A stretch of 19,071 nt of DNA from the NCBI RefSeq assembly GCF_006345805.1, contig NW_021824618.1, positions 1 to 19,071 of the forward strand, in the 5' to 3' direction. The notes under the pieces are model-generated. The model made no database searches and was not told the DNA's origin. It saw nothing but the letters and a program-made list of their open reading frames with translations. Made by a program: the position numbers and the translations under genes. Positions 3,751 to 18,289 of this stretch are shown piece after piece (position 1 is the first letter of the stretch; every line of letters begins with the position of its first letter). The DNA is from Octopus sinensis (lineage: Eukaryota).

Positions 3751-3939
3751 ATTACCATGAAGAATATGTTCTCAAGAAAAATCTCAGCAAAACGCCAAAA
3801 TGTAAAAATGAGCAAGACAAATGAAAACATAGGAAATATAAAAGTTTTATATTTCCTATGTTTTCATTTGTCTTGCTCATTTTTACATTTTGGCGTTTTG
3901 CTGAGATTTTTTTCTTGAGAACATATTCTTCGTGGTAAT
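3751..3939. repeat. Near-perfect long inverted repeat (~93-bp arms)
   Basis: ATTACCATGAAGAATATG...GGAAATATAAAA-G-TTTTATATTTCC...CATATTCTTCGTGGTAAT, centred on 3844. Confidence 0.93.
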
Positions 3940-8612: not shown

Positions 8613-8840
8613 TGGACACTCAACTCAAAAAATCAATATCTAAATCTAGAAAATAGTACATCACAGAAATTATGATAATGGTTTGCTCCGGTTTGGACAA
8701 GTTTGATTTGGTTTGGTCTGGTTTGATCTGGTTTGGAGTTCTTGGGTAGTTTTTAATCTATAACATCACATTACTTGCAGCGTGGAAGGTGTTTATAAGC
8801 CATTAAAAACCGTTAGATTCACTTCAACATTTAAATTTAA

Positions 8841-8891
8841 TTTGCTAAAATATTTTCATCGCTTTGAGACCGCGACCTGTTCACTGACAAA
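8841..8891 (-). ncRNA. Variant hammerhead motif (G3-C8), left-arm copy
   Basis: The reverse complement reads TTTGTCA-GTGAACA-G-GTCGC-GGTCTCAAA-GCGAT-GAAA-ATAT-TT-TAGCAAA, with two substitutions relative to the right copy. Confidence 0.6.
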
Positions 8892-8903
8892 GCTTCGTGC
8901 TGT

Positions 8904-8954
8904 TTTGTCAGTGAACAGGTCGCGGTCTCAAAGCGACGAAAATATTTTGGCAAA
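8904..8954 (+). ncRNA. Variant minimal type I hammerhead motif (G3-C8 core, one extra G)
   Basis: TTTGTCA-GTGAACA-G-GTCGC-GGTCTCAAA-GCGAC-GAAA-ATAT-TT-TGGCAAA: 7-bp stem I with one GU pair, 5-bp stem II and palindromic AATATT stem III. Confidence 0.7.
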
Positions 8955-9370
8955 TTAAATTTAAATGTTGAAGTGAATCTAACGGTTTTTGTGTGTTTCT
9001 TAAATGGTTTATAAACACCTTCCACGCTGCAATTGTCTTTCTTTCAGCACACGATCTCAGATCAGGACACTTGGTATGCAAGTACATCGTAATCACGTTA
9101 TTTGTAAGCATTAAAAAAATTGGTATGTTGTGAAGCTCACTCCTACTATCTCATAATAATAATAATTATTCATTAGTTTTCATTTCTAATTATGTACTTT
9201 TACTGCGTAACTGAGTACAGTTCCAAATTCCTTGGCTAGACGCAATGTTTCGTTTCAATTTTTTGCATTTTCTCGATTGCATTTTCTGTATTGTCCTTTG
9301 TAAAACCATTTTCTCTACATTGGATATATTTATAAGTCCTGGGCTCGTCGGTGATGTATTTGTCAGGCCT

Positions 9371-10245
9371 TTATTATTATGTTATGAAAACTCTCAGCTT
9401 ATTTTGCTGGGTATGATGGAAAGTATCAGCTATCCACAGCCAACAGACTAAGGTGCCATTTATATACTGGTCATGCTTCAAGAACTCTGCGAAGAATTCT
9501 TGCAGTTCTAAGCAATGCTGATTATTGTAGGTGTTCTACCTTCACACTTGTACCGTTCTTTTTCAGTCATGTTGGTAGTTGAGCGCTGATCCTTCCAAGT
9601 GCGCAAATTACTATTGTTATCACATCCACTCTCCTCATTGACCACAACCTTTCGTATTTCCCACTTCAAATCGCCACACATGTTTATATTTTTTCTTCTT
9701 CTTTCACATTGATCCTGTTGTCAGCGGGGCATGCTATCTCGACTATCATACAAGTTTTTTTCTTCTTTTTTTCATTCACCAGAACAATGTCCAGTTTCCG
9801 ATGTCTGGTCGGGTGATCACACTGAATCATTGTATCCCACAGGATTTTGCAATTCTCATTCTCGATGACTCTTTCTGGGGTTTGCACATACTACGCCTTT
9901 ACTCTTTCTAAGCCGTGATTCCCACAGAAATCCCAATGGATCATTCTTGTCACATTGTCATATCGTCTTTTGCATTCTCGTTGTGCCAATTCCGGGCATT
10001 CGCAAACGATGTTCGATACCGTTTCACCCCTCTCCTCACACATTCTGCATTTGTCGCTGTCGGTAGTGCTGTCTATCCTGCACTTCACATAGTTGGTCCT
10101 TAATGCTTGTTCTTGAGCTGCGCATATAAGTGCTTCTGTCTCTATCTTCAGGTTACTCCTTATCATCCTTAGCCACCGGTCTTCTGTATCTGTCTATACG
10201 TTCGTATCTCTTGCAAACTCTCCGTATATTTTTCCTTCCATGATG
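9371..10245 (-). mobile_element. Decayed 3' part of an RLE-type LINE (R4/Dong-like)
   Basis: LKIETEALICAAQEQALRT, knuckle CRMCEERGETVSNIVCEC, KRRYDNV, ILWD...HRKLDIVLV...IVEIACP...KEEEKI, ending SALLRTARILRRVLEA* at 9471 with a short (TAA)n tail. The H, RHD and PD motifs are mutated and frameshifts are present. Confidence 0.88.
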
Positions 10246-10282: not shown

Positions 10283-10508
10283 AAGGCTGCGAGCTGGCAG
10301 AATCGTTAGCACGCCGGGCGAAATGTTTAGCGGTATTTCGCACGTCGCGACGTTCTGAGTTCGAATTCCGCCAAGGTCGTCTTTGCCTTTCATCCTTTCG
10401 GGTTCGATAAATTAAGTACCAATGAAACACTGGGGTCGATGTAATCGACTAGTCCCCTCCCCACAAAATTCAGACCTTGTGCCTTTAGTAAAAAGGATTA
10501 TTATTATT
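10283..10508 (+). mobile_element. tRNA-derived SINE (family B), full length
   Basis: GAGCTGGCAGAATCGTTAGC...GAGTTCGAATTCC head, TTCATCCTTTCGGGTTCGATAAATTAAGTACCA central domain and (ATT)n tail. Homologous to 11018-11585. Confidence 0.85.
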
Positions 10509-10744: not shown

Positions 10745-11650
10745 CCAGCAGTTGTGTGACTGTGGTAAGAAGCCTGCTTCCCAAACACATGTTTCCAGAT
10801 TCAGTCCCACTGCATGGCACCTTGGGCAAGTGTGTTTTCCTATAGCCCAGGGATGAGTAAAACTTTGTGTGTGGATTTGGCAGACGGAAACTGAAAGAAG
10901 CCCATCGTTCACAACTGCTGTTAGATTGTCTATGTCCCCGCAACTTAGCAATTCATCGGCAGAGACAGATAGAAGCACCAGATTGAAGAAAAAATAAATA
11001 CTTGGGTAGATTCATTCTTTCCTACTCTAGGCACAAGGCCCGAAATCTTGGGGGAGGAGGCTAGTCGATTAGATCTACCCCAGTACGCAGCTGGTACTTA
11101 ATTTATCGACCTCGAAAGGATGAAAGTCGACCTCCGTGGAATTTGAACTCAGAACGTAACGGCAGACGAAATACCTATTTGTTTACTGCCCACAAGGGGC
11201 TAAACACAGAGAGGACAAACAAGGACAGACACACGGATTAAGTCGATTACATCGACCCCAGTGCGTAACTGGTACTTATTTAATCGACCCCGAAAGGATG
11301 AAAGGCAAAGTCGACCTCGGCGGAATTTGAACTCAGAACGTAACGACAGACGAAATATCTATTTCTTTATTACCCACAAGGGGCTAAACACAGAGAGGAC
11401 AAACAAGGACAGACAAACGGATTAAGTTGATTACATTGTGCGTAACTGGTACTTATTTAATCGACCCCGAAAGGATGAAAAGCAAAGTCGACCTCGGCGG
11501 AATTTGAACTCAGAACGTAGTGACAGACGAAATACCGTTAAGCATTTCGCCCGGCATGCTAACCTTTCTGCCAGCTCGTCGCCCTCGGTGTAGATTCATT
11601 CGACATCCAGCATGGTGGCAGGCTAAAGAATTCATAAGCAACAATAAAAG
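10745..11650 (+). mobile_element. SINE family A copy split by a family B insertion
   Basis: 10745-11017 is colinear with the 13056 copy. It resumes at ~11590 with GATTCATTCGAC..CCAGCATGG..AATAAAAGA. Confidence 0.75.
11018..11585 (-). mobile_element. SINE family B, composite with three tandem central units
   Basis: CTGGTACTTA..TCGACC.CGAAAGGATGAAA..GGAATTTGAACTCAGAACGTA..CAGACGAAATA occurs three times at ~180-bp spacing. It is flanked by GTAGATTCATTC at 11006-11017 and 11590-11601. Confidence 0.88.
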
Positions 11651-14021: not shown

Positions 14022-14349
14022 TTAAGTATAACGCCTACGCAGCGACTGCCGGTCGCCACTGACCAGCCCAGATTTTCCCACTCCCACCCCCTCAAGAACT
14101 CACAACGACCTCGAGTGCAAACACAATACACAAGTGCAAACAAGGGAGTCAGAGAAAGGCAGAATGCCACCTATATCTGAACACTACTATGGAAGTATTC
14201 CTTTAAAAAAACCTTTCTTCTAATTTTTCTAAATTTTTCTAAATTTAATTATTTAATCGTTACAGTTGAAAAGGTCTCAAAATGACCGAAACCGGTACTG
14301 AAAGATTCACTATAAAATCATCTTAGCATTTTCTATTTTTGACTTGTTT

Positions 14350-14354
<5 letters not shown>
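14020..14354 (+). mobile_element. Hammerhead-bearing Penelope pLTR-like fragment between (TA)n tracts
   Basis: A ~335-bp island bounded by (TA)n that contains the motif at 14255-14307. Confidence 0.6.
14255..14307 (+). ncRNA. Minimal type I hammerhead ribozyme motif (U3-A8 core)
   Basis: AATCGTTACAG-TTGAAAA-GGTC-TCAAAAT-GACC-GAAA-CCGG-TA-CTGAAAGATT. Stem I is CAG/CTG extended by AATC/GATT, stem II is GGTC/GACC and stem III is palindromic ACCGGT. The GUA site ends at 14297. Confidence 0.85.
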
Positions 14355-14380
<26 letters not shown>

Positions 14381-14384
<4 letters not shown>

Positions 14385-15245
14385 AATATATATGTATGTA
14401 TATATAGTATATATATTTATTTATATATACGGTCCCGCAGCTTAAATAGACCGAGAGAATAAGTACCAGGTTTTAAGAAAAGAAATATGCACTGGCATCG
14501 TTTCCTCAAGGTAATATGGTCGCAGTCTAATGACTGCAACAAGCAGCAGATAAAAGATAAAGTTATGTGTGTGGTGTGTGTGTGTGTGTGTGTGTATGTG
14601 TGTGTGTGTGTGTGTGGTGTGTGTGTGTGTGGTGTGTGTTGTCTCTGCTTGAGACCCAATCTCCTTTTATAGTGTAGATACAATCGTCTTAGACAGCGAG
14701 TACATTCTTCATAGTATCGTATTTATCATATAAATATGGAAGATTTCTGATTTAATGCAAAACAAATAGAATACAACCGGCTATGTATACATATTTTCAG
14801 ACAGCCTCTATGGGAGAAAACATAGCTAGTAGTCATTCAAAAAATACAACTAAGATAGTGAAACAGACGAAATTATGAAAGAAAAAAAAATAAGAGAAAA
14901 CAAAATGGCGTCCGTTGAAATGGTTGCAATATCGAGGAGCGATGAGAAACTGAAAAACATCGCTGAATGACTTAAAGAAAACTAATTCTTTGCCTATTTT
15001 GTTTCGTTTTCCTTGTATTTATTTATTTAAGTGACCAGTTATGTTTCTAAACGACCGGGATCATGTGACACTGGAGACTTCAATGCTAGAGGGCGCTGTC
15101 TGTGGCGGCATTTAGATCAACTCTGACACCAATTATCGTTTGATCTTGAGAAAATATACGGCTACTCAGTAAACACTATTTTGTCAGTTTTATTAGTGGT
15201 GGAGTTGTATAAATACATAACATCATGTTTCGTAGGAAAACATAT

Positions 15246-15304
<59 letters not shown>

Positions 15305-15422
15305 GCATATGTGTGGGTGATTGTGTATATGTGTGTATGTGCGTATTTGTGTGCGTGTGTATATGTACGTACGTGTGTGTATGTACACATAAACATACAA
15401 ACATATATATACCTACCCAACT

Positions 15423-15462
<40 letters not shown>

Positions 15463-15650
15463 AATATATATGTATGTATATATAGTATATATATTTATTT
15501 ATATATACGGTCCCGCAGCTTAAATAGACCGAGAGAATAAGTACCAGGTTTTAAGAAAAGAAATATGCACTGGCATCGTTTCCTCAAGGTAATATGGTCG
15601 CAGTCTAATGACTGCAACAAGCAGCAGATAAAAGATAAAGTTATGTGTGT

Positions 15651-15720
<70 letters not shown>

Positions 15721-16331
15721 TGCTTGAGACCCAATCTCCTTTTATAGTGTAGATACAATCGTCTTAGACAGCGAGTACATTCTTCATAGTATCGTATTTA
15801 TCATATAAATATGGAAGATTTCTGATTTAATGCAAAACAAATAGAATACAACCGGCTATGTATACATATTTTCAGACAGCCTCTATGGGAGAAAACATAG
15901 CTAGTAGTCATTCAAAAAATACAACTAAGATAGTGAAACAGACGAATTATGAAAGAAAAAAAAATAAGAGAAAACAAAATGGCGTCCGTTGAAATGGTTG
16001 CAATATCGAGGAGCGATGAGAAACTGAAAAACATCGCTGAATGACTTAAAGAAAACTAATTCTTTGCCTATTTTGTTTCGTTTTCCTTGTATTTATTTAT
16101 TTAAGTGACCAGTTATGTTTCTAAACGACCGGGATCATGTGACACTGGAGACTTCAATGCTAGAGGGCGCTGTCTGTGGCGGCATTTAGATCAACTCTGA
16201 CACCAATTATCGTTTGATCTTGAGAAAAAATATACGGCTACTCAGTAAACACTATTTTGTCAGTTTTATTAGTGGTGGAGTTGTATAAATACATAACATC
16301 ATGTTTCGTAGGAAAACATATATACATATAT

Positions 16332-16389
<58 letters not shown>

Positions 16390-17640: not shown

Positions 17641-18136
17641 GTGTATGAATGTATGTTTATTGGTCTTTTTAAAAGGAAATGGTTGACATTGACTTCGAAG
17701 TTTTGGCTTGTTGTCTTCGAGAGACTGAGAAAAACAAACAAGCTGAAACTTCGAAGTCGCTATTAAACTTTTCCTTGCAAAGCTTTATCAAAATTGGTCT
17801 CAATTTAAATATACTTAATACTCCAGTTTAACGTTAAATTGCTTTTATATGGAACTTGACATCAGAACACGCATTACATACACACAAACATACACCTATA
17901 TTTTTATATTACTGGAGTAACATTATACGGATTTTTGCTCGTATATATGGTATCCAACTGTAGTACCAGTGAAATGAATGTTTAACACACCCCTTTGAAG
18001 GATTTATTTTCTTCAGTTTGTTACTATATATATGCAAGTAAGTCTGTATGTATGGAGTGTTAGATGTGATGAACAGAAATGAATATTAAGAAAAAAAAGT
18101 CGACAGAAATTTGGGAAAAAATCCTTTTATTTCTCC

Positions 18137-18183
18137 ATTATTAATAGCGCTTTCGTTCCTCTCTAGAATTTGCCAAATACAAT
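18137..18183 (-). ncRNA. Decayed hammerhead motif, left-arm copy
   Basis: The reverse complement reads ATTGTAT-TTGGCAA-ATTCTAGAGAGGAAC-GAAA-GCGC-TA-TTAATAAT. A6 and G10.1 are mutated. Confidence 0.5.
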
Positions 18184-18203
18184 TTTGTTTGTACATTCAC
18201 AAA

Positions 18204-18246
18204 ATTGTATTTGACAAGTTTTAGGAACGAAAGCGCTAATAATAAT
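18204..18246 (+). ncRNA. Minimal type I hammerhead motif (U3-A8 core)
   Basis: ATTGTAT-TTGACAA-GTT-TTAGG-AAC-GAAA-GCGC-TA-ATAATAAT, with palindromic AGCGCT and a weak bulged stem I. Confidence 0.68.
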
Positions 18247-18289
18247 GAAGAAACAAAAGGAATTTTTTTCCAAAATTCTGACGACTCTT

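Follow-up and report, generated by a model that had tools for sequence, protein, structure and literature searches.

The window, that is, the whole stretch of 19,071 nucleotides from Octopus sinensis analysed here (contig NW_021824618.1), contains a fold-back insertion whose two arms each carry a small hammerhead-shaped motif. We focus on the motif in the right arm, in which the pair between core positions 3 and 8 is G-C and not the canonical C-G. The insertion and the motif comprise the following features (window positions).

8765..8774, plus strand: left copy of a possible target-site duplication, matching the right copy at 8 of 10 bases
8775..8902, minus strand: left arm, an inverted, 5'-truncated copy of the element end seen in the right arm, without a tail and with a 12-nt deletion
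8841..8891, minus strand: left-arm hammerhead motif with the same GTGAACAG core; 10.1-11.1 is G.U, and stem I contains a C.A mismatch
8903..9092, plus strand: right arm, the 3' end (pLTR part) of a Penelope-like element (PLE), 5'-truncated just before stem I
8904..8954, plus strand: minimal type-I hammerhead-shaped motif with a G3-C8 core and a predicted cut after U17 (8947)
8904-8910 and 8948-8954, plus strand: stem I, 7 bp with one U.G
8911-8917, plus strand: core GTGAACA, in which G3 is 8911 and C8 is 8916
8918, plus strand: extra G between core and stem II
8919-8923 and 8933-8937, plus strand: stem II, 5 bp, with G10.1-C11.1 formed by G8919-C8937
8938-8941, 8942-8945, 8946 and 8947, plus strand: GAAA, ATAT, U16.1 and U17
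about 9035-9092, plus strand: tail of the right arm, about 58 nt
9092..9101, plus strand: right copy of the possible target-site duplication, pairing with 8765..8774

A re-reading of the 51 bases at 8904-8954 agrees with the preliminary description in the stems, the GTGAACA core, the extra G and the UUU cleavage-site triplet. Stem III, described there as "only A-U", is indeed minimal but is in fact the palindrome AATATT (8941-8946), for which 2 bp can be drawn within one molecule, and 6 bp when two molecules pair. C3 and G8 of the canonical CUGANGA core are absent and the motif is thus classed as a variant. The 3-8 pair of the hammerhead was established through engineered G3-C8 rescue, and G5, G12, A13 and A14 are the catalytic letters of the core. 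At 8904-8954 the 3-8 pair is Watson-Crick, and U4, G5 and A6, A9, G12, A13 and A14, the A15.1-U16.1 pair and H17 are all present. The hallmarks of minimal PLE hammerheads are found as well, namely an extra nucleotide between 9 and 10.1, the G10.1-C11.1 pair and palindromic 15.2-16.2 with loop 3.

In the monomer, the predicted minimum-energy structure pairs G3 with U17 and thereby lengthens stem I. For the dimer, the energy model gives -29.4 kcal/mol for the inactive form and -24.2 kcal/mol for the active form, which thus lies about 5 kcal/mol above the best structure. The fold of 8904-8954 alone is weak (z -2.1), a relaxed descriptor that accepts any Watson-Crick 3-8 pair matched once in the window and also in one of 100 dinucleotide shuffles, and an Rfam scan of the window (137 matches at E<=1) returned no hammerhead family over 8904-8954. 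Such values would suit a chance look-alike within a fold-back or MITE-type repeat. However, the motif sits at the position of PLE hammerheads and aligns with canonical hammerheads in two homologous families, which already contradict this explanation; we find it hardly credible.

The motif heads a repeat of roughly 200 nt with 671 candidates, and a 31-nt word from the 3' part of the repeat has 3,430 exact matches. Longer copies reach further upstream, first across a 3' region rich in microsatellites and then into an open reading frame. In the locus L146 this frame encodes 1,042 amino acids, among which DKSG, YSRYVDD, a CxxxCxxC linker and GIVY..YIG can be recognised by eye; its stop codon precedes the hammerhead by about 900 nt. 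A hammerhead also lies downstream in most of the loci selected by their open reading frame (L116-L165). The L146 frame has no Pfam match and no PDB match of its own; homologues of it match Pfam RVT_1 (below cut-off) and GIY-YIG (above cut-off in P0065). One relative, which its source names as an Octopus protein, is represented in the genome by copies 99% identical to it. The CX2-5CxxC linker between reverse transcriptase (RT) and endonuclease reads CQSNCAVC in L146 and CTDNYCTVC in L341. The order that marks the Neptune clade, an RT followed by a C-terminal GIY-YIG with CCHH, is found by eye in L146. Neptune-clade elements, as far as described in the accessible text of PMC8557442, have RT, CX2-5CxxC linker and GIY-YIG with CCHH in the same order and likewise show 5' truncation, inverted copies, a tail and microsatellite flanks, whereas the octopus tail of about 58 nt is longer than their 30-40 bp. 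The parent is, by its motifs, a high-copy Penelope-like retrotransposon of Neptune-like type, a context that the preliminary description did not recognise.

A truncated copy in inverted orientation often stands before a copy of the family; the same part of PMC8557442 describes both such inverted copies and a one-sided tail for PLEs. The 3' ends of 124 arms (de-duplicated by sequence, five long loci included and three tandem duplicates excluded) are bimodal, with 54 short (about +122-127 from G3), 68 long (about +177-187) and 2 other ends. Tandem arrays, which would mark a non-LTR retrozyme, do not occur at the locus, and copies are single or in inverted pairs. Same-strand pairs 5.3 kb apart (L061, L062), considered as full elements, proved to be local duplications. 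As judged from its sequence, the fold-back in the window is the usual inverted, 5'-truncated PLE copy. The predicted structure of its read-through RNA is one long hairpin (-94.8 kcal/mol), and this particular copy is therefore probably inert. Apart from CpG transitions, the differences in RNA reads over 8893-9100 (runs X21-X23) are mostly A>G and T>C; they could reflect editing of the fold-back RNA or divergence among copies.

The window holds further repeats. A second minimal hammerhead at 14263-14300 (plus strand) has a U3-A8 core (TTGAAAA), a 4-bp stem II, a CCGG palindrome and a GUA site, and gives a weak Rfam HH9 match (E 0.099). Matches within one mismatch number 2,275, with U3-A8 in 99 of the first 100 listed, and GIY-YIG-type coding sequence lies upstream in 2 of 5 loci; by these sequence features it belongs to a separate Penelope family. 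On the minus strand, the 3' part of a non-LTR retrotransposon lies, broken, at 9500-10230 and includes a zinc-knuckle region (zf-RVT match, weak, E 0.0017). A fragment of 152 aa encoded at 987-1448 on the same strand looks, by eye, like the C-terminus of a LINE reverse transcriptase; Pfam gives no match. A 184-bp tandem repeat occupies 11063-11583 (2.6 copies) with an inverted partial copy at 10285-10470, and the hammerhead descriptor has no match in either. At 14348-16369 the sequence is duplicated in tandem almost perfectly, the period being about 1,075 bp. Short fold-backs at 3781-3907, 17672-17777 and 18120-18263, which give sub-threshold matches to microRNA models, are probably other inverted repeat insertions.

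The G3-C8 pair is shared by the family at large. A search with positions 3, 7 and 8 left free gave 1,112 matches, and the first 100 listed comprise 87 with G3-C8, 3 with G3.G8 and none with C3. Among arms chosen by their 3' end, and hence independently of the core, 74 of 85 are G3-C8 and none has C3. These family-wide counts also sustain the earlier claim that the core predates the inversion; the argument originally given for it, a core common to both arms, is weak because both arms stem from one insertion event. Matches within one mismatch of the canonical core number 36, of which 31 are G3.G8, 5 have C3 alone and none is C3-G8. One decayed copy (L114) has C3-G8 together with an altered stem I. 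U17 is found in 101 of 102 arms, and the palindromic stem III is preserved as ATAT TT in 151 of 168 parsed copies. In sequencing runs labelled as four other organisms, from which reads were counted only if at least 80% alike, no change occurs at 8911 (G3) among the 40 of 59 rows listed, and C8>G makes up 0.4-0.9% of contig depth and 23 of 591 RNA reads (overall 0.4-3.9%). Across the copies compared, G3-C8 is the ancestral state of the repeat family and not the decay of one copy.

The genome also holds two related families that have the motif in the corresponding position, and both share the extra G. Sister family 1 (787 pattern matches) has a CTGAAGAG core, stem II GTCAC/GTGAC and C17; 41 of its 42 parsed copies are C3-G8, and pieces of its open reading frame are 38-50% identical. 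Sister family 2, which is Neptune-like (L341-L370, e.g., L341:4639-4687), has in 35 of 39 matches a CTGATGCG core, that is, C3-G8 with C at position 9 (A9C). Its stem II is also GTCAC/GTGAC, position 17 is C or U depending on the subfamily, and its open reading frame is 54% identical. Between the families, pair 3-8 is C-G vs G-C and pair 4 of stem II is A-U vs G-C; across all three, A15.1-U16.1 is invariant and stem III remains self-complementary.

As the related families keep C3-G8 and the changes in stem II preserve pairing, the 3-8 swap looks compensatory, with both sides of the pair changed as the preliminary description had proposed. The covariation alignment has 8 rows, 2 of them partly misaligned, and holds three lineages only, so that the swap counts as one event. 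The two C3-G8 families resemble each other more than either resembles the G3-C8 family, and the polarity of the change hence rests on the wider PLE consensus. We infer that G3-C8 is the derived state and that selection on the 3-8 pair maintained it. A9C in sister family 2 implies that cores in the clade may be loosely constrained. The sister-family loci (n=30) are too diverged for calling break points relative to the cut site. At the level of sequence, the motif at 8904-8954 is genuine: a candidate ribozyme of the known minimal Penelope type, in a variant whose G3-C8 pair holds across the family.

The metazoan consensus of PLE hammerheads, as given in the available part of PMC4209133 (Cervera and De la Pena 2014), has an extra base between 9 and 10.1, G10.1-C11.1 and a palindromic helix III. 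The octopus motif resembles these minimal type-I hammerheads in all three respects and also in its pLTR position, its predicted need for a dimer, its U17 and UUU site and the occurrence of opposite-strand copy pairs; it differs in G3-C8 and in having G as the extra base. The 56 aligned motifs in Fig. S3 of that source comprise 53 with C3-G8, 2 with U3-A8, 1 with U3.G8 and none with G3-C8; U17 is common, and the UUU site (in an oyster) and an extra base G occur in one each. Of the four features combined in the preliminary description, the 3-8 swap alone is unusual; the extra base, the tiny palindromic stem III and U17 or UUU are ordinary for PLEs.

Natural compensatory change of the 3-8 pair is known as U3-A8, which occurs in Schistosoma PLEs (PMC4209133, available part) and is the only 3-8 covariation reported in the accessible text of Perreault 2011 (PMC3088659). 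The octopus pair is alike in being a natural covariant; however, U3-A8 arises by two transitions via a U.G wobble, whereas G3-C8 takes two transversions via a G.G or C.C mismatch. G3-C8 itself has been engineered: a C3G/G8C double mutant of the Poseidon hammerhead of Anolis carolinensis partially rescued cleavage, for which protein was also needed (PMC11167929, in the portion available), and the available portion of PMC8495972 also has G3-C8 as a partial rescue. The Anolis case and the octopus family share the swapped pair, uncut RNA as the main insertion substrate and the tail signature, but the Anolis mutant is laboratory-made and the octopus swap is natural, is present in thousands of copies and belongs to a Neptune-like element. 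The literature covered yielded engineered G3-C8 only, and no natural case appears in the accessible parts of bioRxiv 10.64898/2026.07.22.740005, PMC2920678, PMC10085705, PMC6765202, PMC8495972 and PMC2377424. The earlier suggestion of an undescribed natural variant thus agrees with the sources covered and is provisional.

Copies with a broken 3-8 pair bear on whether the core is needed. G3.G8 copies make up about 3% of the family (in L035, L048, L094-L101, L149 and L153) and, at 31 vs 5 of the 1,112 matches, are about six times commoner than C3 singles (p 1e-5). They span several subfamily haplotypes, and L094 has different bases at position 8 in its two arms. That they form an older stepping-stone subfamily is not supported, both because of the several haplotypes and because they are not older (16 vs 207 arms, divergence p 0.25). 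Since G3.G8 copies, expected to be dead, are over-represented across subfamilies, the core is perhaps dispensable for spread, which suggests that the element can move without an intact core. Subfamily changes within the family fall mainly in loop II and the flanks. Shared variants occur at 3 of 42 constrained positions vs 18 of 159 elsewhere, a raw count that is not significant (p 0.32) and reaches p about 0.01 only once an alignment gap, a CpG site and a wobble are taken out post hoc.

Hence, the motif might be a dead relic: cleavage would no longer be needed, position 3-8 would have drifted via G3.G8 and been re-paired by a chance C8, and the fold would persist from the youth of the family. 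The abundance and spread of G3.G8 and the raw constraint test are in line with such decay, as is the available text of PMC11167929, in which hammerhead mutants had no effect on the in vitro insertion of another PLE. It would, however, require drift to produce precisely the two transversions by which the one Watson-Crick pair of the core is restored, while U4, G5, A6, A9, GAAA and U16.1 were kept, stem II changed on both sides between families and subfamily changes clustered in loop II and the flanks. The way insertions begin adds a further point in favor of decay; on balance we regard decay as unlikely.

Insertion starts show what kind of RNA was copied. Upstream starts, 16-28 nt before G3, account for 52 of the 124 arms, and a single arm begins at the predicted cut site or no more than 2 nt from it. 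The most frequent start is -23 from G3 (e.g., L146:1554); there, G stands in place of the template C in 13 of 16 arms, against a G background in the flanks of 25/160; a second parse of these starts gave 15/20 G (binomial p about 4e-7). In L1, capped templates are recognisable by an extra G (PMC11702581), and we accordingly take the untemplated G to be a likely copy of the cap. Together with the 1/124 starts at the cut site, this makes it likely, from the sequences, that most insertions came from capped, uncut RNA that starts in the pLTR and was copied whole. Cleavage is not the maker of most insertion templates, which is the further point that a dead ribozyme would explain. Yet a short monomeric RNA is not expected to cut, and so uncut insertions do not show the ribozyme to be dead.

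A splice product was also considered for the -23 pile-up and set aside: the upstream sequence resembles a 3' splice site, but only one upstream base is shared, so that a cap fits better. A very short exon is nevertheless a possible source. A downstream promoter element overlapping the core was rejected. The RGWYV downstream promoter motif is expected at +28, and the RGWYV-like word here lies at +30/+31. Raw RNA reads of a related organism show both orientations about equally and no pile-up of ends, a weak test given the fragmented libraries.

The hammerhead begins 16 nt past the inferred transcription start. This placement would fit a fold kept for a job other than cutting, e.g., as a binding or dimerisation site for the RT of the element, close to the start site in the pLTR, with the 3-8 pair serving shape and not chemistry. 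The available part of PMC4209133 leaves room for it in the low in vitro activity of PLE hammerheads and in the non-cleavage roles it leaves open, and A9C in sister family 2 is compatible with it. On the other hand, mere binding would not need the catalytic G12, A13, A14 and G5 or the 3-8 pair, yet every one of them is kept, and fungal and plant PLE hammerheads cut well (same part of PMC4209133). We consider such a role improbable.

What we favor, and think fairly probable, is a hammerhead-shaped RNA in the 3' terminal repeat of a high-copy PLE whose family-wide G-C pair at 3-8 replaces C-G and which likely cuts after U17, slowly, only when two copies pair via AAUAUU, and probably with the help of protein. 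Within a single tandem or read-through RNA, the AAUAUU palindromes of two copies would pair with each other, and the paired copies would be cut after U17 (8947), slowly by analogy with tested PLE hammerheads, whose dimers cut only weakly in the part of PMC4209133 available. The element's own protein would probably assist. U17 in place of C17 may weaken the competing pair between G3 and N17, as a C17 would, by pairing with G3, lock the RNA in an inactive form, in the way argued for C3-G17 (PMC3884650); the same paper mentions, as "data not shown", that a G3-C8 variant is less active with C17 than with G17. The near-invariant U17 of the family fits avoidance of a G3-C17 trap, but represents a single lineage. 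Since most inserted copies appear to derive from capped, uncut RNA starting at -23, we infer that cleavage would process tandem or read-through RNAs of the element and not make the usual insertion template.

A bolder version goes further in several ways: an active natural G3-C8 hammerhead in a family of thousands of copies, reached via a G3.G8 stepping stone of the kind still seen in about 3% of copies and made workable through U17; C3-G8, U3-A8 and G3-C8 PLE hammerheads side by side in one genome; searches for CUGANGA that undercount; and cleavage that serves something other than the insertion template. As a whole we put this forward tentatively, as possible but doubtful.

A large natural family fixed for the swap, with canonical sisters in the same genome, constitutes an evolutionary replicate of the engineered rescue and a natural set of constructs. 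Moreover, because standard descriptors and Rfam miss the swapped core, PLE hammerheads are probably undercounted, and a second search with a swapped-core descriptor could be made in clades supposed to be free of hammerheads. Finally, the untemplated-G signature offers a genomic handle on the role of Penelope hammerheads.
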